A DNA stretch of 64,000 nucleotides from Clostridia bacterium (GTDB taxonomy: Bacteria; Bacillota; Clostridia; Christensenellales; UBA1242), in assembly GCA_017621525.1 (NCBI GenBank), contig JAGASX010000011.1:47865-111864 (forward strand), written 5' to 3'. Shown piece by piece: positions 665 through 60,543 of the stretch. Each line of letters starts with the position of its first letter. Within the stretch, counting starts at the first letter, position 1. The position numbers and the translations under genes are program-made. The notes beneath the pieces are model-generated. The model made no database searches, had not been told where the DNA came from, and was given only the letters and a program-made list of their open reading frames with translations.

Positions 665-2401
665 TTACTTTTCAATCACCTTTAAGCCAAGTTCTTGCAA
701 GGTTTTTTCATCAATCCTGCTTGGCGCATTCATAAGCAAATCTCTACCATTTTTATTAAGAGGAAATGCCGCGATTTCTCTTATCACATCATATCCTAAA
801 ATTTGCATAAGCATTCTGTCAAAGCCAAACGCACCGCCTGCGTGAGGTGGCGCCCCATAAGAAAAGGCGTTAAAGAGCGCAGAGAATTTGCTTTCAACAA
901 CTTCTTGCGAGTATCCTACAAGTTCAAAGGCTTTTATCATTGTTTCTTGTTGATGATTTCTTACCGCACCGCTTAACATTTCATAACCGTTACATACAAG
1001 GTCATACTGATAGGCAACAATATCCAATGGGTCTTTATTAAGCAAAGCATCAAGACCACCTTGTGGCATTGAGAATGGGTTATGCGAAAAGTCGAGTTTG
1101 CCTGTTTCTTCATTGATTTCATAGAAAGGAAAATCAACTACCCAGCAAAATTTAACCGCATTTGCATCAATAAGCCCAAGTTGTTCACCCAAAGCATTAC
1201 GAAGCACGTTGGCAAGTTTAATAGCCATTGCTTTTTCATCAGCAATAAAGAAAAGAGAATCACCCGCGTTTAAATTAAACGACTTTAAGGAATTTTTCTG
1301 CTCATCAGTCAAAAATTTGGCAATTGAACCAGAAAATTCAACGCCGTCATATTTAAGCCAAGCAACGCCTTTCCCCTCATAACTTACAATAAGTTTTCCA
1401 AGGTCATCATAAAATCTGCGAGGCTTATCTTCACAAGACGCAACAATCATTTTTATTGTTTTGCCCTTAAACGCATTAAATTCTGTGTTTTCAAACACAC
1501 TTGTAACATCATTAACTATAAGAGGATTGCGTAGGTCTGGCTTATCAGAGCAATATTTTTCAATTGCCTCTTTATAAGGGATACGCACAAAAGGTGCATC
1601 GCAAACGTCAAGTTTAGTAAATTTTTTGTAAAGCCCTGTTACAAAGTTTTCGCAAACTTCAAAAACATCTTCTTGCGTAACAAAAGACATTTCAAAGTCT
1701 ATTTGATAAAACTCCCCTGTCATTCTATCTGCTCTGCCTGCTTCATTTCTAAAACATGGTGCAATTTGAAAATATTTATCATAACCAGACACCATAAGCA
1801 ATTGCTTAAATTGCTGTGGCGCCTGAGGAAGAGCATAAAATTCACCCTTTGAAAAAATTGTAGGCACAATGTAATCTCTTGCCCCCTCAGGAGAACTTGA
1901 TGTCAATATCGGCGTTTGCACTTCCAAAAAGCCCATTTCATAAAATTTATCTCGAATATACTTTAAAATTTCACTGCGAACAACAAGGTTTTTATGGTTT
2001 AAAGGGTTACGCAAGTCAAGGTAGCGATATTTATATCTTAAATCTTCTTTTGTATTTGGCGCTTCGCCTATTTCAAAAGGAAGAACATTCATGCATTTAC
2101 CCAAAGTTTCAATCTTATGCACTTTAACTTCTATATCGCCTGTTTGCATATTTTTGTTTTTGGAACTACGCTCCACAACTTCGCCCTCTACGCGAACAAC
2201 GGTTTCTTTACAAATGTCGCCCAACATAGCCTCATCATCAAAAACAATTTGAGTAAGCCCAAAATGGTCGCGAATTGTACAAAAAGCAATGCCTCCCAAT
2301 TTACGTATAGCCTCTACCCAGCCTGACAAAACCACCTGTTTGCCAACATCATTTAAAGACAACTCGTTGCAATTATGTGTGTGATAATAATTAGTTTTCA
2401 T
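665..2401 (-). CDS. aspS: Aspartate--tRNA ligase
   Basis: Full-length class II AspRS-like translation (QAPQQFKQLLMVSG, FRNEAGRADR, GAPPHAGGAFGFDR). Start placed at the internal ATG 2401 (MKTNYY), which is preceded by GGAG. Confidence 0.95.
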   Translation of the reverse strand: MKTNYYHTHNCNELSLNDVGKQVVLSGWVEAIRKLGGIAFCTIRDHFGLTQIVFDDEAMLGDICKETVVRVEGEVVERSSKNKNMQTGDIEVKVHKIETLGKCMNVLPFEIGEAPNTKEDLRYKYRYLDLRNPLNHKNLVVRSEILKYIRDKFYEMGFLEVQTPILTSSSPEGARDYIVPTIFSKGEFYALPQAPQQFKQLLMVSGYDKYFQIAPCFRNEAGRADRMTGEFYQIDFEMSFVTQEDVFEVCENFVTGLYKKFTKLDVCDAPFVRIPYKEAIEKYCSDKPDLRNPLIVNDVTSVFENTEFNAFKGKTIKMIVASCEDKPRRFYDDLGKLIVSYEGKGVAWLKYDGVEFSGSIAKFLTDEQKNSLKSFNLNAGDSLFFIADEKAMAIKLANVLRNALGEQLGLIDANAVKFCWVVDFPFYEINEETGKLDFSHNPFSMPQGGLDALLNKDPLDIVAYQYDLVCNGYEMLSGAVRNHQQETMIKAFELVGYSQEVVESKFSALFNAFSYGAPPHAGGAFGFDRMLMQILGYDVIREIAAFPLNKNGRDLLMNAPSRIDEKTLQELGLKVIEK

Positions 2402-2457
2402 TTGTTTTTCTCCGCAAAAAGTATAACACATTTTTGACAGAACACAAAGTGTTTTTG

Positions 2458-3552
2458 TTATGATTTTTTATACAATTGCACCCCAGCAATCACAAGCGTA
2501 CCAACAAAAGCAAATGAAAATATCATCGCCCACACCCAATTTGAGGTTGAAGAATATTTTGTAGGCGGTTCGCTTGATTGGTTTTCATTATTTTCTTCAT
2601 CTATTATAATATCTTCGGTTTCTGGCGATTTTTCATCGTCAACTATAATTTCATCATCGCCATTCGAAACGCTGTTATATAGCGCCGTTTCAACAACATC
2701 TGCAAGGTATGGAATTGTATTAAAAACATACTCTTTTTCAATCATATACGTGCCCATTTCAAAAAGCAAATTTGTTTCTTTAAGGCTTTGATTATAGTGT
2801 CCACCGCCACAATAAACATCTAAAAAAAGCCAAGGATACATGCTGGCACCCAGCGCAAAAACCTTTTGTGCAAATTGATAGTTTTCTTCAAAATTAGGAT
2901 TTGATTTGCCAACAACAATTCTCACTTTGCTTAATGGTAGGCCGTTTTGGTTTGTATAATAATAACTTTTGCTTATTCCGTCGCGATGAATATCAAAAAG
3001 AGCGTCTGGGGAATAGTTTTCTTTCAGTGATTTTGCTGTAACCGAAGAGCGACTATACGCAGAACTATTATGAGGAATATGCAAAGTTTCATCAAGAACA
3101 GAAAATATACCGCGAGAGTTAAATTCTTCTTGCAACTCTCTTGCCACGTCATGAATTCCACCAGCGCCATAAATGCTATCGTAGCCATCGCTTGGGGTAT
3201 AACTTTCATCATTATGTGTCATATACATACAAATACTTTTTCGCTCTATTCCTCTTTTTTGCGGGAAAAATTGCCTATTGATTTTAGGCGGGTTTATATC
3301 TCTTTTCTTTCTTGCATAACCGCAGTTCCCCTCAACTTTATATATTTCATATTCATCAAAATTAGAGGTGATAAAAACATCGCCCTCTTCTATTTCGCTT
3401 TTGCGAGCCACTTCCTCACCTTGTTGATTGTAAACCACATACTCGGCTATATCGCCATCTTCGGCAAAAGTGATTTTTTCACAAAATGGCATTGCACACG
3501 GCAAAATGGCAAGCAACAAAAATAACAAAATAAGACATGAACAATTTTTCAT
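2458..3552 (-). CDS. spoIIP: Stage II sporulation protein P (SpoIIP-family amidase/peptidase)
   Basis: SpoIIP-like core (YMTHNDESYTPSDGY, GIHDVARELQEEF, DIHRDG). Has an N-terminal hydrophobic segment plus an acidic linker and a C-terminal TM helix. Confidence 0.8.
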   Translation of the reverse strand: MKNCSCLILLFLLLAILPCAMPFCEKITFAEDGDIAEYVVYNQQGEEVARKSEIEEGDVFITSNFDEYEIYKVEGNCGYARKKRDINPPKINRQFFPQKRGIERKSICMYMTHNDESYTPSDGYDSIYGAGGIHDVARELQEEFNSRGIFSVLDETLHIPHNSSAYSRSSVTAKSLKENYSPDALFDIHRDGISKSYYYTNQNGLPLSKVRIVVGKSNPNFEENYQFAQKVFALGASMYPWLFLDVYCGGGHYNQSLKETNLLFEMGTYMIEKEYVFNTIPYLADVVETALYNSVSNGDDEIIVDDEKSPETEDIIIDEENNENQSSEPPTKYSSTSNWVWAMIFSFAFVGTLVIAGVQLYKKS

Positions 3553-3587: not shown

Positions 3588-4334
3588 TTATATTTTCTTT
3601 GCCTTAAAAAATGCAAAGAATGGCCTATCCTTTTGGTATTTATATTTCTCTACAAGTTTAATTGCCTCTGGCGACGCCTTCGATTCTCGCACCTCCAAAA
3701 TCATAAGCCCTGCGTTTGCTATTGCATTTATAACCACCTCAAAATTACGATGATATTTTACAACTCCTTCAATGTTCCAAGAAATTTCCCTTTTCCCAAT
3801 GTTGTTGTAATCACTTAAAAAATAGTACCTTTTCCCATCTATTTCGGTATATTTTGCCATGCCATCAACACGAATTGTTGCTGTTGTAACTGGGTGTTCT
3901 TGTGAGAAAATAAGTATACCATTTGGATTTAACAAGTTTGATATGTTTTTAATAAGCAAATCAAAATCTTCAATGTAATGAAAGGCAAGCGAACTGAAAA
4001 CAATATCAAATTTTTCAGTTAGCGTAGGCAGTTCTTCCATCGCAAGTTGAAGGTATTGCACATTTTGATGTTTATTTTGCACATTTGCACTTGCAATCAT
4101 ATTTGAAGAAACATCAATTCCTACAACTTTTTTTGCACCTTTTTCTGCAAAATATTGGCTCATACCACCCTCACCGCAACCAAGATCGAGGATTGTTTTT
4201 CCTTCAAGTTCTGGCAACATTTGTTTCATGATTGGAATTTCAATCAATTCGTTTGCGTTGATTTTGCCATCACGCATTGATTTGTACTCGGCAAAGAAGT
4301 CTGCATTGTCATAGACATTTTGAATTTTTTCCAT
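3588..4334 (-). CDS. Class I SAM-dependent methyltransferase
   Basis: SAM-binding motif ILDLGCGEGG..VVGIDVS. AGGAGG RBS at 4343-4348. Confidence 0.8.
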   Translation of the reverse strand: MEKIQNVYDNADFFAEYKSMRDGKINANELIEIPIMKQMLPELEGKTILDLGCGEGGMSQYFAEKGAKKVVGIDVSSNMIASANVQNKHQNVQYLQLAMEELPTLTEKFDIVFSSLAFHYIEDFDLLIKNISNLLNPNGILIFSQEHPVTTATIRVDGMAKYTEIDGKRYYFLSDYNNIGKREISWNIEGVVKYHRNFEVVINAIANAGLMILEVRESKASPEAIKLVEKYKYQKDRPFFAFFKAKKI

Positions 4335-4356
4335 ATTTTCACCTCCTTATATGGTC

Positions 4357-4386
4357 AAAAAAAGGTCCAATCCTTTCGGTTGAACC
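4357..4386 (-). terminator. Intrinsic terminator closing the tRNA-Leu transcription unit
   Basis: Minus-sense hairpin GGTTCAACC-GAAA-GGATTGGACC followed by T7. Confidence 0.6.
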
Positions 4387-4423
4387 TTTGATGCTTTATT
4401 TATTAAGTTAACAAAATGTATTA

Positions 4424-4530
4424 TGGTGCGGGCGGTGGGAGCCCTTACCCTAAAAATCTTACGATTTTCAGGGAACCCGCGAACCCAAAGGTTCGACACC
4501 CTCCGCGTCCAATATAACTAAAATGTATTA
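4424..4530 (-). repeat. tRNA-Leu-linked structured module ending in a duplicate tRNA 3' end (..CTCCCACCGCCCGCACCA)
   Basis: 29-nt perfect direct repeat 4413-4441 = 4520-4548. Internal hairpins at 4448-4473 (GTAA loop) and 4480-4495. Lies between the tRNA and its terminator. Confidence 0.6.
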
Positions 4531-4612
4531 TGGTGCGGGCGGTGGGAGTCGAACCCACACGGTTTCCCACTTGCCCCTTAAACAAGCGCGTCTGCCATTC
4601 CGCCACGCCCGC
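4531..4612 (-). tRNA. tRNA-Leu, anticodon read as AAG (type II tRNA, short variable arm, encoded CCA)
   Basis: Cloverleaf by hand: GCGGGCG / D arm GCGG-AATGGCAGAC-GCG / CTTGT-TTAAGGG-GCAAG / GTGGG-TTCGACT-CCCAC / CGCCCGC-A-CCA. Aligns to the tRNA-Leu at 55646. Confidence 0.85.
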
Positions 4613-4627
4613 ACATGATACTTTGTT

Positions 4628-4656
4628 ATTATATAAATATTTAAAAATAAAGTCAA
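4628..4656 (-). promoter_or_regulatory. Sigma-A type promoter for tRNA-Leu
   Basis: Minus sense TTGACT (4651-4656), 17 nt, TATAAT (4628-4633), about 15 nt upstream of the tRNA 5' end. Confidence 0.6.
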
Positions 4657-4698
4657 GCATTTTACACAAAAATTTTTAATTTTTTTTAAATAAAAATT

Positions 4699-4726
4699 AA
4701 AAAAAGAGGTTTTTTAACACACCTCT
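4699..4726 (-). terminator. Intrinsic terminator of clpX (overlaps the stop codon)
   Basis: Minus-sense stem AGAGGT/ACCTCT (4721-4726 / 4705-4710) followed by a T-run. Confidence 0.6.
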
Positions 4727-5991
4727 TTTTTATCTCCGTTGCTTTCCGTTGATTTATAGTAAATTTCAGGCTCACCCGCCTCTTCTTCAATGAATGGAAG
4801 GTCAACAACTATCTTTTCAACATTTTTAAGGCTTGGCACTTCATACATAAGTTTGGTCATTTTACTTTCAATGATTGTGCGAAGTCCGCGTGCACCTGTT
4901 TTAAGTTCCATAGATTTTTTAGCAATTGCCTTAACCGCCTCTTCTGTAAATTCAAGCACAATGCCATCAATTTTAAACATAAGTTTATACTGCTTGATAA
5001 GTGAGTTTTTAGGCTCTTCCAAAATTCTTACAAGCGAATGTTCATCAAGTTCGTCAAGGCCGACAACCACAGGAAGTCTACCAATAAATTCAGGTATAAG
5101 TCCAAATTTGATAAGGTCATTTGGCTGAATTTCCTTGGCAAAATTCCCCTTTTTACCTTCTTCGGTTTCTTTGATTGTTGCATTAAACCCCAAAGATGCG
5201 GTATCGTTTTTTCGAGCCTCAATTATTTTGTCAAGCCCTACAAACGCACCTCCACAAATAAACAAAATGTTTGTTGTGTCAATCTGTATCATTTCTTGAT
5301 GAGGATGCTTCCTACCACCTTGTGGTGGAACTGATGCAACCGTGCTTTCAAGAATTTTTAGAAGGGCTTGTTGCACACCCTCACCTGCAACATCTCTGGT
5401 GATTGATACATTTTGAGTCTTTTTTGCAATTTTGTCTATCTCATCAATATAAATAATCCCGCGTTGTGCCTTCTCGATGTCATAATCGGCATTTTGAATA
5501 AGTTTAAGCAAAATGTTTTCAACATCATCACCAACATATCCAGCCTCTGTTAAAGTTGTCGCGTCAGCGGTTGCGAATGGCACTTTCAGAACTTTAGCCA
5601 AAGTTTTAGCAAGAAGAGTTTTTCCAGAACCTGTTGCACCAACCATAAGAATATTGCTTTTTTCAAGTTCGACTTCATCAACGCTTTTTTTGTTTTCTAC
5701 ATCAAGATTGTAATTTAATCTTTTATAGTGGTTATACACAGCAACGGCAAGTACCTTTTTCGCCTCATCTTGACCAATTATATACTCATCAAGTTTTTCT
5801 TTAATTTCGCTTGGTGAAGGCAGGTCAAGTTTTTCAAATTTAGATTTTTTTACAACATCTACAACAATTTCTTTGCAAATTTCTATACATTCATCACAAA
5901 TATATGCATCGCCGTTTGGGCTTGCAATAAGTTTTTTCGCCTCTTTTTGACTTTTTCCACAAAAACTGCACTTGCAATCAAATTCGTTCAC
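4714..5991 (-). CDS. clpX: ATP-dependent Clp protease ATP-binding subunit ClpX
   Basis: N-terminal zinc ribbon CSFCGK..CDEC, Walker A GATGSGKT, and a full-length ClpX-like translation. Confidence 0.97.
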
Positions 5992-38605: not shown

Positions 38606-38639
38606 ATATTGTGAACTAAAACTTTGAATAGCCCACGTT

Positions 38640-38707
38640 TGGTGCCCTAAGGTGGGCTTAACCCTCTCTTTCAAGAGATTTAAGGTTGCTTCCACCAAGG
38701 CCACGTT
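38640..38707 (-). repeat. tRNA-Phe-linked 68-nt module ending in a duplicate tRNA-Phe 3' end (..CCACCTTAGGGCACCA)
   Basis: 23-nt perfect direct repeat 38633-38655 = 38701-38723 (period 68). Internal hairpin TCTC-TTGAAA-GAGA. Confidence 0.6.
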
Positions 38708-38783
38708 TGGTGCCCTAAGGTGGAATCGAACCACCGACACAAGGATTTTCTGTCCTTTGCTCTACCGACTGAGCTATCAGGGC
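38708..38783 (-). tRNA. tRNA-Phe (GAA) with A instead of U at position 33, CCA encoded
   Basis: GCCCTGA acceptor, D arm GCTC-AGTCGGTA-GAGC, anticodon arm AAGGA-CAGAAAA-TCCTT, T arm GGTGG-TTCGATT-CCACC. Confidence 0.85.
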
Positions 38784-55439: not shown

Positions 55440-55645
55440 TTGAATTCAGCGACCGAGGGAGGTCGCTATTATAATTTATGGGGGTATTTTTATTAAAGGT
55501 GCGGAAAGAGTGGCGGAATATCAATCCTTTGCACCAATGTGTGCGGTGAAAGGATTGATGCATACGCTTTGCGTATTTAGTGCAGACGGCGTCTGCCATT
55601 GTTAAGTACAACGCTTGTACAAAATTTACAACTTAATATCTCTCA

Positions 55646-55731
<86 letters not shown>

Positions 55732-55736
55732 ATAAA

Positions 55737-55755
55737 ACAGGGTAACCTGTTTTTT
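55737..55755 (+). terminator. Small intrinsic terminator right after tRNA-Leu
   Basis: CAGG-GTAA-CCTG followed by T7. Confidence 0.5.
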
Positions 55756-55786
55756 TATTACAAGCAATTAAGGTTTTTGTTGAATT

Positions 55787-55865
55787 ATTGGTGGGAGGCG
55801 AACGTGTTCGACGGGGTCCCAAAAAATCGTAAGATTTTTGGGGTAAGGCTTCCACCACCAGCACC
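55787..55865 (+). repeat. tRNA-Leu-linked structured module ending in ..CTTCCACCACCAGCACCA (homolog of 4424-4530)
   Basis: 15-nt repeat of the tRNA 3' end (55717-55731 = 55851-55865). Hairpins CGAAC-GT-GTTCG and CCCAAAAAATC-GTAA-GATTTTTGGGG. Has its own terminator downstream. Confidence 0.6.
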
Positions 55866-55873
55866 AAATAAGT

Positions 55874-55903: not shown

Positions 55904-55915
55904 TATATCTTTTAG

Positions 55916-55977
55916 ATGTGGAGGTAGATTTTAAGGCACGGCTCAACCCCACCACAAACAAGGCATCTTGTTTTTTT
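55916..55977 (+). repeat. Decayed third copy of the Leu-linked module with its own terminator
   Basis: TGTGGAGG..TAGATTTTAAGG..GGCTCAACCCCACCACA resembles ..AAGATTTTTAGGGTAAGGGCTCCCACC.. of the intact modules. ACAAG-GCAT-CTTGT followed by T7 at 55957-55977. Confidence 0.4.
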
Positions 55978-56041
55978 TCGTTAAAAATTAAAATATTGAC
56001 AAATATATTATAGAATGATACAATGAGTATGGAGGCTTAAA

Positions 56042-57024: not shown

Positions 57025-57124
57025 TTTAGCCCCCTAAATTGCTTTAAGTATATCATAAAAAATGTTTATTGGCTATTGATTTAATATACAATTTAAAAAT
57101 TTTAAAAAAATATGTAAATAAAAC

Positions 57125-57176
57125 TTGACATTTGATACGAGTGAGCGTATAATAAAAATGTAAAGGAAACTTTACA
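57125..57176 (+). promoter_or_regulatory. Consensus promoter plus operator palindrome for the membrane-protein/XRE operon
   Basis: TTGACA (57125-57130), 17 nt, TATAAT (57148-57153). Perfect inverted repeat TGTAAAG-GAAA-CTTTACA at 57159-57176. Confidence 0.65.
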
Positions 57177-57188
57177 AAAGGAGGTTTT

Positions 57189-57521
57189 ATGGAAAAGGAA
57201 GAAATTTTGGAAAGGGCAACCAAGAAAAAAGCGTTGGTTGGAGAAATGGAAAAGGCAAAAATTAACAAATCTTGTTGGATTGGCAATATTGTTGCTGTGA
57301 TTGTCGCTGTTGCTTTTATGGTTATTGAAGGAGCAATTGGACATTTTACCGCAATTTACGCAATTGCATCTATTTGCATGATTTGGGCAAGTGTGTTTTA
57401 TTTCTGCCAATACTTTATTGCAAAAAGGCCATGGCCGGTGCTTTTAGGCGCGATACTTGAAGGGCTTGGTGCAATGGCTATGTTGACATTTTACATTCTT
57501 TTTGCGGTTGGGGTTTTATAA
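57189..57521 (+). CDS. Small membrane protein (three TM helices) co-transcribed with an XRE regulator
   Basis: GGAGG RBS. Its stop overlaps the regulator's ATG (TAATG). Confidence 0.6.
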   Translation: MEKEEILERATKKKALVGEMEKAKINKSCWIGNIVAVIVAVAFMVIEGAIGHFTAIYAIASICMIWASVFYFCQYFIAKRPWPVLLGAILEGLGAMAMLTFYILFAVGVL

Positions 57522-57727
57522 TGGATAGTGAATTGATATTAAAAAATAATCTTAAAGAAAAAAGGATTAAAAAAGGACTTTCACAAGAAGAACTTGCAAA
57601 ACTTGTTGGCACCACCCGACAAACAATTATATCCATAGAAAAGAATTTGTTTAACCCATCAGCAAAACTTGCACTTTTGCTTTGTACGGCGTTGGATGAA
57701 AAGTTTGAAAACTTATTTTACTTTTAA
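57521..57727 (+). CDS. XRE-family HTH transcriptional regulator (68 aa)
   Basis: HTH LKEKRIKKGLSQEELAKLVGTTRQTIISIEKN. Confidence 0.85.
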   Translation: MDSELILKNNLKEKRIKKGLSQEELAKLVGTTRQTIISIEKNLFNPSAKLALLLCTALDEKFENLFYF

Positions 57728-57752
57728 AAAAGAGGGTTTGCCCCTCTTTTTT
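57726..57752. terminator. Bidirectional intrinsic terminator
   Basis: AGAGGG-TTTG-CCCCTCT stem flanked by A6 and T6. Confidence 0.6.
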
Positions 57753-59463
57753 AGAACTTGCATCTTGAATTACAGCATAAATAAATTATTTGATAGTCAG
57801 AGGCAAGTTCTTTTAAAAACTCCCCTGCCTTTTTCATGTTTTCATCATCAAGGTTTACAAAGGTATCATCAAGCACGATAAATGGTTTTTCCTTTTTGTA
57901 TATTTCTTTTAAAAGGTAAATTCTTACGCAGAAAGACAAAATATCTTGGTAGCCTTGGCTTGAATATTCCTTTTCTTTTACACCAGACAAGGCAACTTCT
58001 TTTACATCAAAGTTTCCATCAATGATAAACTGTCTGCCTCGCACTTCAAACTTGGATAAAATATCTTTAAGCGCCTTATTAGCGGGCTGAACAAATCTGT
58101 TTGAAATATTTTCACCGGCCTGCAATAAAAAGTTTTGTGTGGCAGTCAAAAGTTGCATTTTTCTTGTCGAATTTGCGTAACTTTCTTCATTTAAAAGTAT
58201 ATGTGAGGCAATCTCGTCTATTTTGTCTTGATTTCTTTCACTTTCTGTTATTAAAAACTCTCTTTCTTTTAAAGCATTTTGAAGCGCCATTCGCAAATCA
58301 AATAATTGTGCATTTATTGTGTCAACCATTGCAAAGTTTGGCGACTGGATATTTTGATATGCTTTAAGGTTGTCTTTGATTATTGAAAGTTGTTGATTTT
58401 TTACATCAAGTTGGTTTTGAATTTCGGTGTTCTGTTGTGGTTGTTGAGTATTTTGCGGTTTATGCAAAAAGAAAATTCCCACGCAAGCAATTGCAAGCAT
58501 ACACACTGCAATTATTATTGAAATTGGCAGGCTTATGGTTTTTAATATGCCTAATACCACGCAAGACACGGCGCCTATTAAGCCCAAAATTATCATTATA
58601 ATTGCAGGTATTGTAAGCGGTTTTTGAGGCTTTGTCTGTGGCTGAATTTGATTGAGTTGAAGTAAAAGATTGTTGACCTCTTCCTGTTTTACCCTTAAAT
58701 CATCTTCCATTTTTTGCTTTATACTGAATTGCTGCATGGCAAAGTCATATTCTTCTTTTGCTTTTTGAGAATTCACTTCAAGTGCTTTTATTTTGTTTTG
58801 ATATTCATCAATTTGGGCTGTTAAATTTTCTATCTTGTTTTGATTATTTTGTATGTTGGCTTGAAGGTTTTGAAATTCAATACGCAGGTTTTCTGTTTTT
58901 GACTTATCGCCTTTCTCTTTTTTTACCTCTGTAAGTTTTTTCTTTATTTGAGAAATTGCACCTTTTAAATTTGCAAGGTCATTTTTAAATTTATCAAGTC
59001 CCAAAAGGTTTGCAGACGTTTCATCATTTGTGGTAACAGCAAAATTCAATTGTGGGAAAAACGCTGTGGTTTGAAAAGTTTCCCTGCCAATTTCAAATAA
59101 AACCTCCCCAATTTCTTTCCCTTGTAAGTCGACAACTTTATTTGTTGCCAAATTTAACAGTTGACAAAAATCACCCTCCGGAGTTTTTGCAAAATTTCTT
59201 GTTATGCGGTAAGGCGTATTCTGGCTTTCAAATTCCACATAACCGCCATACGTTCCACCCTGCCAAGGCGTGTATTTTTTTCTTTCGGTTTTTATATTCT
59301 CTCGTGATGCCGTCATGCCATAAAACATGGCCTTTATGAAAATTGACAAGGTTGTTTTGCCATATCCATTTTCATAGCAAAATTGGTTGATACCATCTTG
59401 AAAATCAATGGTTATGTTTTGAAGTTTTCCAAAATTTTGTATGTATATTTTTGTTATTTTCAT
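57751..59463 (-). CDS. SbcC/Rad50-like AAA ATPase of the YhaN type, with two central TM helices inside the coiled coil
   Basis: Walker A ENGYGKTT, long coiled coil, hydrophobic hairpin (IPAIIMIILGLIGAVSCVVLG / LPISIIIAVCMLAIACVGIFFL), signature-like SQGYQD, Walker B FIVLDD. Confidence 0.75.
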   Translation of the reverse strand: MKITKIYIQNFGKLQNITIDFQDGINQFCYENGYGKTTLSIFIKAMFYGMTASRENIKTERKKYTPWQGGTYGGYVEFESQNTPYRITRNFAKTPEGDFCQLLNLATNKVVDLQGKEIGEVLFEIGRETFQTTAFFPQLNFAVTTNDETSANLLGLDKFKNDLANLKGAISQIKKKLTEVKKEKGDKSKTENLRIEFQNLQANIQNNQNKIENLTAQIDEYQNKIKALEVNSQKAKEEYDFAMQQFSIKQKMEDDLRVKQEEVNNLLLQLNQIQPQTKPQKPLTIPAIIMIILGLIGAVSCVVLGILKTISLPISIIIAVCMLAIACVGIFFLHKPQNTQQPQQNTEIQNQLDVKNQQLSIIKDNLKAYQNIQSPNFAMVDTINAQLFDLRMALQNALKEREFLITESERNQDKIDEIASHILLNEESYANSTRKMQLLTATQNFLLQAGENISNRFVQPANKALKDILSKFEVRGRQFIIDGNFDVKEVALSGVKEKEYSSQGYQDILSFCVRIYLLKEIYKKEKPFIVLDDTFVNLDDENMKKAGEFLKELASDYQIIYLCCNSRCKF

Positions 59464-60497
59464 AAATTGATTTCTTCACCTTTTAAGGCTTCAAGCCCAA
59501 TTTCGCAAATTAGTTTTTTATCTTCTTGTGGCAGGTCGCTGTTTTCTACCAAAGTGATAAATTCATATTTGAATGAAAGTTTTTCTTGTTTTATTTTCTC
59601 TATATCAAGTTTTAAAGTGCTTTCATCTTTTAATTCAAAATAAAAGAAGTGATTAAAATGCTGTTTTATATATTCAAGTGATTTTTCCGAACTTTCATCA
59701 TAACTACCCTTTAAAACAACGCGGACAATATCTTTTGTTGAAATTGAATTTTGCAGTATTGTTTCTTCTATTTCTTTTATAATTTGTGTTGAGTTTTGGC
59801 AGGAAGAAATATCACATTCGCAAATCATATAGCGTCTGGTAGCAAAAGGCTTAAATTCAACCTTTTCCACTTTTTTATCCTCTATTACAACCTGCAAAAA
59901 GCCTTTATCACCACATTCATCAAAGCCGTTTGAAAACAGGCTTCCGCTGTAAGCAAAAATGTTGTTATCCTTCTTATATTTTTTCATTTGATGAATGTGC
60001 CCCATGGCGATGTATGTGAATTTACAAGGGAAATATTTATTTATATTTACATAGTCATTGTCGCCCATTGTTTCTATATTGCCGTGTAAAAGAAGAACAT
60101 TTGTTTGTGATTGGTCGATAGTTTGCCCTTCAATTTGTGAGTAAAAATTAACATTATTTATAGTAATTGAAGGGTTGCTTTTGCTTAAAATATGAAAGTT
60201 TTGGGGTATGATTTTGTCAGCAAAAATATTTTCATCATGATTTCCTTGAACATAAAGGACAGGTCTTGCAAAGTTTTTTACGGCAGTAACAAAGGCGTTA
60301 TATAGTTTTTGTGAAACCGATTTTGAGTGAAAAAGGTCGCCACAAATTAACACAACATCATATCCTTGCGAATATGCCTCATCAAAAAAACATTGAAGGT
60401 TTATAAACCCCTCTTCTCTTAAAACTTTTTGTTGGTATGCTGGCAATTTTAGGTTTTTGCTACCCAAGTGCCAATCTGCTGAATGTAATATTTTCAT
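59460..60497 (-). CDS. SbcD/Mre11-like metallophosphoesterase (YhaO type)
   Basis: ILHSADWHLG, CGDLFH, GNHD, MGHIH motifs. Start at ATG 60497 after GAGGAAACA. ATGA overlap with the ATPase gene. Confidence 0.85.
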   Translation of the reverse strand: MKILHSADWHLGSKNLKLPAYQQKVLREEGFINLQCFFDEAYSQGYDVVLICGDLFHSKSVSQKLYNAFVTAVKNFARPVLYVQGNHDENIFADKIIPQNFHILSKSNPSITINNVNFYSQIEGQTIDQSQTNVLLLHGNIETMGDNDYVNINKYFPCKFTYIAMGHIHQMKKYKKDNNIFAYSGSLFSNGFDECGDKGFLQVVIEDKKVEKVEFKPFATRRYMICECDISSCQNSTQIIKEIEETILQNSISTKDIVRVVLKGSYDESSEKSLEYIKQHFNHFFYFELKDESTLKLDIEKIKQEKLSFKYEFITLVENSDLPQEDKKLICEIGLEALKGEEINL

Positions 60498-60543
60498 TGT
60501 TTCCTCTTGATTTAAGTATACAAAATTTTTATAAAAACGCAAA

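Follow-up and report, generated by a model that had tools for sequence, protein, structure and literature searches.

Small hairpin modules that follow tRNA genes in one clade of uncultured Clostridia

The tRNA-Leu(AAG) locus and module M1

The DNA analyzed here, referred to as the window, is a 64,000-nt stretch of a Clostridia bacterium genome (contig JAGASX010000011.1, positions 47,865 to 111,864). On its minus strand, a tRNA-Leu(AAG) gene is followed by a short structured unit, module M1, which ends in a second copy of the tRNA 3' end. M1 belongs to a small non-coding hairpin-module family located at tRNA 3' ends in a clade of uncultured Clostridia, and its 107-nt unit is a DNA-level insertion at tRNA-Leu(AAG) that is not ancestral to the locus. 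The features of the locus and the other features found in the window are listed in Table 1.

An initial annotation of the locus had described a 29-nt perfect direct repeat with a period of 107 nt, a helix between GCGGAGGG (4506..4499) and CCCACCGC (4439..4432), the hairpin CGAACC-TTTG-GGTTCG, and an 11-bp hairpin closed by a GTAA loop, all of which were recovered at the positions given. The chance expectation for such a repeat here is about 1e-11. The 5' arm, described there as 8 nt, was found to be longer and corresponds, without gaps over 28 nt and with 75% complementarity, to the whole tRNA 3' end and 3 flanking bases in inverted orientation (4490-4517 versus 4528-4555). This arm provides the 5' strands of helices P1 and P2 and has the same sequence in the related locus L012, and the 3' strand of P2 is a direct copy of the T stem and the start of the T loop. 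The order of M1 is thus T arm, 3' end, and trailer, 10 nt, the inverted 28 nt, 4 nt, and again T arm to 3' end and trailer. The GGGTAAGG(G) of the constant region occupies the place that GGGTTCGA takes in a T arm. The suggestion that the module is a T arm with a hairpin inserted in its T loop is backed by the family comparison, as two modules from related genomes, L003a and L007, read GGGTTCG-hairpin-GGGTAAGG-CT/TT-CCC, versus GGGTTCGACT/GATT-CCC in their own tRNAs. The predicted fold of M1 reached -40.7 kcal/mol, compared to -28.9 ± 3.7 kcal/mol for shuffled sequences (z = -3.2).

The promoter of the unit and the terminator-like hairpin at its end are both conserved in L012. No terminator-like site was found between the tRNA and M1, and the terminator after the module was confirmed by folding at this locus, as initially annotated; a simple terminator scan of positions 4200-4800 gave zero calls, including for this hairpin.

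The tRNA-Leu(AAG) gene carries A34, which in bacteria is normally confined to tRNA-Arg(ACG). The gene was identical or near-identical in the window and in L012, L013, L014, L113, L114, and L003, and its clade-wide presence suggests A-to-I editing of a Leu tRNA in these Clostridia.

Table 1. Positions of the module features and associated elements (window coordinates unless a locus is named)
Feature	Position	Strand	Basis
tRNA-Leu, anticodon AAG, CCA encoded	4531..4612	-	tRNA calling and Rfam, 50.7 bits
Sigma-70-type promoter of the tRNA-Leu(AAG) unit, TTGACT-17-TATAAT	4628..4656	-	11/12 match; kept in L012
M1, direct repeat copy 1: tRNA positions 59-76 (18 nt) and 11 nt of trailer	4520..4548	-	repeat search
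M1, imperfect inverted copy (75%) of the tRNA 3' end: T arm, acceptor 3' strand, CCA, TAA	4490..4517	-	repeat search
M1, P2 hairpin CGAACC-TTTG-GGTTCG	4480..4495	-	sequence reading and folding
M1, family constant region: hairpin GGGTTCCCTGAAAATC-GTAA-GATTTTTAGGG (4448-4473) and GGGTAAGG(G)	4442..4479	-	family comparison
M1, direct repeat copy 2: displaced tRNA 3' end and trailer; CCA end at 4424	4413..4441	-	repeat search
Intrinsic-terminator-like 12-bp imperfect hairpin and U7 ending the unit	4357..4389	-	folding, -13.7 kcal/mol, z = -3.8
M3, between tRNA-Phe and tRNA-Thr, within a tRNA operon	38633..38700	-	search with the last 20 nt of every tRNA
M2, downstream of tRNA-Leu(TAA) 55647-55732, same plan as M1	55789..55867	+	hairpin and repeat search
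Remnant of an older, heavily decayed module, with a third, truncated tRNA-Leu(TAA) 3' end and a terminator	55906..55978	+	repeat search
DUF6442/HTH_3 cassette, window	57110-57727	+	
DUF6442/HTH_3 cassette, L013	7700-8336		
DUF6442/HTH_3 cassette, L113	4000-4609		
DUF6442/HTH_3 cassette, L114	5440-6051		
DUF6442/HTH_3 cassette, L021	1293-1900	-	

Modules at other tRNA genes and in related genomes

The window contains three modules, downstream of tRNA-Leu(AAG), tRNA-Leu(TAA), and tRNA-Phe. A search of the window with the GTAA hairpin revealed a second one at 55818-55843, inside module M2, whose 3' end differs from that of its own tRNA-Leu(TAA) by 1 mismatch and is paired with the 5' arm TGGTGGGAG. 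The remnant further downstream is barely recognizable, and its terminator is homologous to the one at 55734-55756. Module M3 consists of 45 novel nt, namely, the inverted T arm GGTGGAAGCAACC, a GAAA-capped hairpin unlike the GTAA hairpin, and GGGTTAAGC, and its 23-nt repeat (38633-38655 = 38701-38723) comprises 16 nt of the tRNA-Phe 3' end and 7 nt of trailer. The repeat spacing is 107 nt in M1, 134 nt in M2, and 68 nt in M3, and in all three a cognate 3' fragment of the tRNA gene (tDNA) lies downstream on the same strand beside the intact gene. The tRNA-Phe gene itself (38708-38783, minus strand), the sole one seen, has the anticodon loop CAGAAAA with A at position 33 in place of the near-universal U, and its orthologues in L019 and L020 read CTGAAAA; the A33 is either a real variant or an assembly error. 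One C-to-T change recurs in the independent modules M2 (55850-55852), L011a, and L006b; it affects the first position of the T stem in the displaced end (CTCCC to CTTCC) and converts a G-C pair of P1 to G.U.

A pattern scan of 185,579 species genomes and a separate scan of metagenome contigs, neither of which covered the M3-type hairpin, gave four loci only, all from uncultured Clostridia, chance matches aside. Among the species genomes, the metagenome-assembled genomes (MAGs) of L003 and L006 have two modules each after an identical tRNA-Leu(AAG), and that of L007 has a single module after tRNA-Glu(TTC); the metagenome scan added L011, of the same locus type as L003 and L006. The 5' arm of the L007 module reproduces the tRNA-Glu T arm exactly in reverse complement, and the module ends in an exact copy of the tRNA-Glu 3' end. 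A 36-nt region, GGGTTCCCTGAAAATCGTAAGATTTTTAGGGTAAGG, was 100% identical in M1, L003a, L006a, L007, and L016, across the Leu and Glu contexts.

The family plan runs from the tRNA through a spacer, an inverted T arm with or without the acceptor, a loop, GGGTTCG, and the constant hairpin to GGGTAAGG instead of GGGTTCGA, followed by tRNA positions 59/60-76 with or without trailer. This one architecture, with one or two hairpins per module, occurs at four different tRNAs, and the non-tRNA interior is always 45-107 nt. The modules measure about 70-135 nt and the duplications 15-34 nt, with the repeat running 7-16 nt past CCA into the trailer. A common three-way junction was predicted for M1, its L012 orthologue, M2, L003a, and L007, and a single long hairpin for M3. 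In a module profile search of about 210 kb of related sequence, matches were located exclusively beside tRNA genes.

Orthologous loci were retrieved via ClpX, a HAD hydrolase, and a Band-7 protein. At tRNA-Leu(AAG), M1 was carried by L016 (ClpX 100%) and L012 (ClpX 97%), no module was present in L013, L014, L113, and L114 (ClpX 86-89%), in which the tRNA is followed directly by a terminator, and L003, L006, and L011 (ClpX 81-82%) had modules at the same tRNA with different junctions and a terminator between. A module-free tRNA-Leu(AAG) gene would run directly into GTTAACTTAAT. M3 was held by the L012 genome (locus L019), and the site was empty in L020, reading CACCA-AAGTGGGCT; L019 and the window have the 45 novel nt there together with a 23-24-nt duplication of the tRNA end and trailer. 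At tRNA-Leu(TAA), the order in the window is tRNA, terminator A, M2, tRNA end, terminator B, decayed module, truncated tRNA end, and terminator A', and the order in the L012 genome (locus L021) is tRNA, terminator B, module, decayed tRNA end, and terminator A. From these differing array orders and the patchy sites it follows that the loci have been repeatedly rebuilt.

The gene content downstream of these tRNA genes varies. A two-gene cassette for a DUF6442 membrane protein and an Xre-type HTH_3 regulator, with its own conserved promoter and a TGTAAAG..CTTTACA palindrome, lies directly after tRNA-Leu(AAG) in three lineages (loci L013, L113, and L114). In the window and the L012 genome it is located about 1.3 kb after tRNA-Leu(TAA), and their tRNA-Leu(AAG) has M1 instead.

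In the arrays, the proximal copy was intact and the distal copies were decayed, as seen in the 'b' copies of L003, L006, and L011 and in the window remnant; L006b and L011b carry C-to-T changes in the tRNA end as well as loop and closing-pair changes. When the window was compared with L012, clpX and the methyltransferase gene were 34-39% different at third codon positions, uniformly up to the gene ends, and the unstructured spacer was about 27% different or had indels, whereas the M1 core differed at 6 of 89 positions with 32 of 36 identical in the hairpin core. M3 differed between the window and L019 at about 5 of 45 positions, its hairpin core being identical (25/25) and the adjoining spacer about 29% different. 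One change in 68 nt was counted in the four displaced tRNA ends, versus the 34-39% third-position divergence of the flanking genes. The tRNA-proximal copies are thus 4-5 times more conserved than synonymous sites, which, judging from two genome pairs, points to constraint or a homogenizing process. A recombination tract behind the low divergence from L012 was rejected, as third-position divergence amounted to 24-50% per 150-nt block to both gene ends.

Hairpin variants were shared within a genome, while the flanking arms stay locus-specific. Both hairpin copies of the L012 genome read CCCTAAAAATCATAAGATTTTTAGGGT and are identical to each other (27/27), and both window copies, in M1 and M2, have the GTAA loop and GGGTAAGG. 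Such sharing could reflect selection by a partner acting in trans or, alternatively, turnover or copying from a source specific to each genome.

At four of the six distinct loci (M2, L021, L003/L006/L011, and L007), the module is set apart from its tRNA by a terminator hairpin, which for M2 lies at 55734-55753. Promoter scans revealed no own promoter for M2 or L003a and no promoter-like site after the intervening terminators. Co-transcription with the tRNA is therefore expected for M1 and M3 but is no general trait of the family. With M3 situated within a tRNA operon and no terminator ahead of M1, both should be transcribed; M1 would be carried as a passenger in the tRNA precursor. The idea of a CCA-ending minihelix-like small RNA (sRNA), raised in the initial annotation, was weakened by these terminators, by the decay of older copies, and by the acceptor 3' strand, which lacks a partner in L003a and L007. 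In folding, its 11-12 nt were unpaired in these two modules, and M1 pairs only GCGG. In M3, an imperfect stem of 6 + 5 bp also pairs A73 and C74, leaving a CA overhang, and the T loop is replaced. None of these modules combines a 7-bp acceptor stem, a 5-bp T stem, a T loop, and an unpaired NCCA end, and neither ARAGORN nor the Rfam tRNA models called any module as a tRNA.

Partial tRNA copies were also found on the 5' side of tRNA-Leu(TAA). Upstream of the intact gene, L023 (about 3035-3110, minus strand) has a plain copy of tRNA positions 1-41 with the leader, and L022 (2620-2800, minus strand) has two tandem 5' partial copies of about 132 nt, in which the D loop holds the stem of the 3'-module hairpin (GGGTTCCCTGAAAAT..ATTTTTAGGGTAA) and the ends form a palindrome exceeding the anticodon stem. 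In the window, the spacer of about 200 nt between tRNA-Cys and tRNA-Leu(TAA) (55440-55646, plus strand) is highly structured and kept in L021. Its sequence includes a tRNA 5' fragment, GTGGCGGAAT, with an 11-bp hairpin behind it, and 12 nt that repeat the D arm perfectly in inverted orientation (55589-55600 versus 55660-55671); it has no Rfam match. A terminator with an AT-rich stretch of about 130 nt (..TTTGTAC..GGATTAT(A/T)TTTGAAATAAGAAA..GAAAAGTT) constitutes a second shared non-coding unit travelling with tRNA-Leu 3' ends, as it occurs after the tRNA-Leu(AAG) end copy in L003 (7100-7250) and after tRNA-Leu(TAA) in L022 (about 2290-2455, minus strand). The AT-rich piece is 0-3% different between L003 and L006, compared to 10-50% around it.

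Searches for enzymes and comparison with known systems

No integrase, transposase, or other recombinase was found among 30 open reading frames of the window or in the annotated neighborhoods of L012, L019, and L021. The neighborhoods consist of core genes, namely, tig-clpP-clpX, aspS, spoIIP, valS, pnp, relA, recJ, and sporulation genes. Scans of IMG/VR with exact and degenerate patterns revealed no relative, returning nothing or chance matches without a hairpin partner, and blastn against phage and plasmid collections gave no relevant match. Genes for an SbcC-like ATPase (AAA_23/SMC_N) and an SbcD-like metallophosphoesterase lie at 57751-60542 (minus strand), 2 kb from the tRNA-Leu(TAA) module array. 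The SbcC/SbcD nuclease pair cuts DNA hairpins and palindromes; the proximity is probably a coincidence.

Rfam searches of M1, the M2 locus, and the L022 5' fragments at gathering and permissive thresholds matched tRNA genes only. The RtT covariance model had no match at E ≤ 10 over positions 4300-4700 and none at the gathering score in the window, and self-cleaving ribozymes, T-box, and tmRNA gave sub-threshold chance matches only, with permuted tmRNA at 17-19 bits versus a gathering score of 47. A hammerhead was rejected for the missing core CUGANGA in CCCUGAAAAUC, a T-box for a 5' UGGA mismatched to the ACCA discriminator, and a tRNA pseudogene or intron-containing tRNA for the lack of an acceptor 5' strand, D arm, anticodon arm, and ARAGORN call. 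The start of the repeat at position 59 had prompted a retroviral-type reading, with a primer-binding site and an 18-nt strong-stop copy ending at m1A58, which was set aside because the repeat holds trailer DNA and no reverse transcriptase is in view. For the insertion sequences IS200/IS605 and IS110 (bridge/seek RNA), casposons, and the homing guides of CRISPR-associated transposons, the defining genes are lacking here, and no duplication or a fixed short one is predicted. The modules also differ from miniature inverted-repeat transposable elements (MITEs) and repetitive extragenic palindromic (REP) sequences, which are marked by constant inverted repeats at the ends, target duplications of fixed length, and numerous dispersed copies; the modules have arms that are target-derived and locus-specific, duplications of 15-34 nt, and matches only beside tRNA genes in 210 kb. 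A literature search for an already described equivalent found none.

Genomic islands at tDNAs are known to have 3' and rarer 5' tDNA fragments, tandem arrays, and a crossover in the T loop or at the T/acceptor junction, and the Islander pipeline, with a length range of 2-200 kb, discards candidates below 2 kb or without an integrase (PMC4383910). In phage Ms6, a 26-base core lies in the T loop of tRNA-Ala (PMC1762012). The modules share with tDNA islands the intact tRNA with a displaced 3' fragment in the same orientation, identity that starts from the T loop and can pass the gene end, tandem arrays, and rarer 5' fragments. They differ in that the interior of 45-107 nt, compared to 2-200 kb, has no cargo and is filled by an inverted T-arm copy and a constant hairpin shared by four tRNAs; for M1, M2, and M3, neither an integrase between the repeats nor an island-range length was found. 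The cis-mobilizable elements (CIMEs) related to ICESt1 and ICESt3 of Streptococcus thermophilus are flanked by att sites, have no recombination genes of their own, undergo tandem accretion and decay, and represent kilobase-scale deletion derivatives of a recognizable integrative and conjugative element. The modules likewise have att-type direct repeats and no recombination module of their own; in contrast to CIMEs, no parent element was found in the collections searched, the sequence read amounting to 64 kb from this genome and about 150 kb from relatives, and the unit is about 100 nt of pure structure.

The tyrT/rtT repeats of Escherichia coli follow a tRNA, include copies of its 3' end, are co-transcribed, and give a processed RNA (bioRxiv 10.1101/2024.07.17.603846). 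The initial comparison with tyrT stands as an analogy of layout, with downstream copies of the tRNA 3' end, but not as kinship, since Rfam models match the tRNA only; rtT is not known to have an inverted T-arm copy or a shared hairpin, and the modules have no Rfam RtT match. The tyrT repeats are 178 bp long, and rtT units are about 170-180 nt and tied to one tRNA. In the integron attC site and the attP(+) site of CTX-phi, two imperfect copies in inverted orientation form a folded stem that resembles the duplex target and is branched or unpaired at the crossover. Insertion of such a site leaves the inverted partner next to one junction, and the modules show just this order, from the tRNA end through the spacer, inverted arm, and loop to the direct arm with its branch hairpin and the displaced end. 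These systems differ from the modules, however, in having IntI or XerCD, carrying genes, and targeting attI or dif, not tRNA genes; for the modules, a single-stranded intermediate would have to be assumed. In Salmonella, tandem inversion duplications with quasi-palindromic junctions arise from snap-back replication. They share with the modules the direct-inverted-direct order, junctions at short palindromes, and later remodeling by deletion, but they usually span kilobases, carry no foreign insert in common, and begin as three identical copies.

The modules are not RtT, an Islander-type island, MITE/REP, or a tRNA minihelix, and no known enzyme, element, or RNA family explains them. By analogy, they appear to work like att-site duplication at tRNA genes combined with the accretion of non-autonomous elements.

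Origin and possible role of the modules

The reading we favor, tentatively and at somewhat short of an even chance, is that of a miniature non-autonomous element whose attachment site is the segment from the T loop to the 3' end of the tRNA gene. The modules would enter tRNA genes at the T loop, each supplying or regenerating the last 16-18 nt of the gene and displacing the earlier 3' end downstream as the direct repeat. This would be the signature of attachment-site (integrase-type) insertion at tRNA genes, here without cargo or a recombinase gene, so that the element would presumably be moved in trans. The conserved core is predicted to be a three-way junction, in which P1 and P2 may pair an inverted with a direct copy of the target T arm, and P3, the constant hairpin with its GNRA cap, would stand at T-loop position 58/59, next to the start of tRNA identity. 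In this way, a folded single strand could resemble the target gene's duplex from T arm to 3' end. Empty and filled sites, the architecture common to four tRNAs, and the profile matches confined to tRNA genes were counted for the insertion-module reading, as were the arrays with an intact proximal and decayed distal copies, which resemble tandem accretion at tDNA sites, and the 5' partial copies of tRNA-Leu(TAA) in L022 and L023. The shared hairpin variants and near-identical displaced ends were counted as well, because repeated excision and insertion or copying from a genome-specific source would yield them.

Several points weigh against the insertion-module reading. No recombinase gene lies near any copy, and searches of IMG/VR and of phage and plasmid sequences revealed no larger relative. 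Physically, a duplex circle of only about 100 bp is implausible, and a single-stranded or other unusual intermediate must be assumed. Retargeting with a 100% identical hairpin is not easily achieved, as both direct and inverted arms need replacing. M1 and M3 are common to the window and the L012 genome and occur in none of the intermediate lineages, which is most simply understood as one ancient insertion each, with the low divergence then resembling purifying selection in place more than turnover. In M1 and M2, CCA and the first bases of the trailer are also part of the inverted arm, as would be expected of local fold-back copying more than of an imported site.

Alternatively, the modules may be functional structured RNAs, either domesticated trailers or released sRNAs, with a 5' arm antisense to the tRNA T arm and 3' end and a 3' end copying the tRNA. 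Such an RNA, selected after the DNA duplication, could present enzymes recognizing tRNA 3' ends with a decoy or mimic, or with a switch in folding or processing. This explanation, which we hold unlikely but not negligible, draws on the few changes in the M1 (6/89) and M3 (0/25) cores relative to 34-39% at third positions and about 27-29% in spacers, on displaced ends that remain identical to the tRNA, and on stem changes that preserve pairing on the tRNA-sense strand (P3 G.U to A-U and a G.U in M2 P1). The expected transcription of M1 and M3, folds well below those of shuffled sequences with the same three-way junction, and parallel loop changes in both copies of one genome, which could mean co-evolution with a trans-acting partner, point the same way. 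However, the distribution is patchy, with the module absent in four related lineages, the terminator precedes the module in four of six distinct loci with no promoter-like site, the 7-16 nt of trailer beyond CCA are superfluous for a mimic, distal copies decay, and the GNRA loop is gone in the L012 genome (GTAA to ATAA). The two inner-helix differences of M3 break pairs without compensation, no Rfam family matches, and the pairing in P1 follows from T-stem copying, so that its 'covariation' is no evidence.

The order of M1, direct, inverted (28 nt), and direct, is also that expected from fold-back (snap-back) template switching at the hairpins of a heavily transcribed tRNA gene, which would give a triplication of the T-arm-to-trailer segment later trimmed by deletions. 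The constant hairpin would then be a small palindrome inserted separately and tolerated in no copy but the redundant one. The M2 inverted arm matches the tRNA end and TAA flank if a 9-nt CCA..CCA slippage deletion is allowed, and the direct repeat ends about 3 nt from the palindrome center in M1 and at the center of the terminator loop in L003/L006 (copy 1 versus copy 3). In L003a and L007, the inverted T arm is as far from the central hairpin as the tRNA's own T arm, and 5' partial copies end in palindromes longer than natural anticodon or D stems (L022 and window 55583-55600). Template switching does not explain a 36-nt hairpin 100% identical at Leu and Glu loci of different genomes, however, and it requires two independent processes to coincide at every locus. 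Its collinearity is gapless in M1 at 75% over 28 nt, needs the 9-nt deletion in M2, and is limited to the T-arm part in L003a, L007, and M3. In these three modules, the stretch from the inverted T arm to the hairpin is of the right length yet shows no complementarity (1/15 identical), although the adjoining T-arm copy is perfect, and the M1 inverted arm is 25% diverged, while both direct copies are identical. We regard template switching as distinctly unlikely. An ordinary scar, the attL/attR of a former full-sized prophage or genomic island with its interior deleted, appears improbable. In its favor, the displaced 3' tDNA fragment lies on the expected side in the expected orientation, identity begins in the T loop, and downstream gene content is variable, but the same right end of about 70 nt, from the inverted T arm on, would be needed independently at four tRNAs in at least three lineages, no island genes are left, no larger homologue was found in the collections searched, and the M3 interior is 45 nt. 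Recombination at the tRNA 3' end, as proposed in the initial annotation, fits the empty and filled sites in relatives, and the single scar of one degraded island does not, because the plan recurs at four tRNAs with an interior of 45-107 nt and no integrase.

A further proposal, unlikely but not negligible, is that of a new class of cargo-less mobile modules of about 70-135 nt, whose folded single strand, a three-way junction resembling the T-arm/3'-end duplex of a tRNA gene, would be a hairpin attachment site as in attC or CTX-phi, or which would have become tRNA-3'-end mimics by domestication. A trans enzyme might then read the universal GGTTCGA T-loop motif, so that a module could be refitted to any tRNA, and related events in the D loop may give the 5' fragments.

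The tRNA genes are classic landing sites of mobile DNA, and elements of this size are uncatalogued because surveys drop candidates that are shorter than 2 kb or lack an integrase. The perfect copies of tRNA ends can mislead the mapping of tRNA-derived fragments, att-site callers, and island finders in Clostridia MAGs. If kept for an RNA function, the modules would represent a bacterial tRNA 3'-end mimic within a tRNA transcript. If mobile, they would be among the smallest site-specific elements known and would imply a recombinase that recognizes tRNA-gene structure over sequence.

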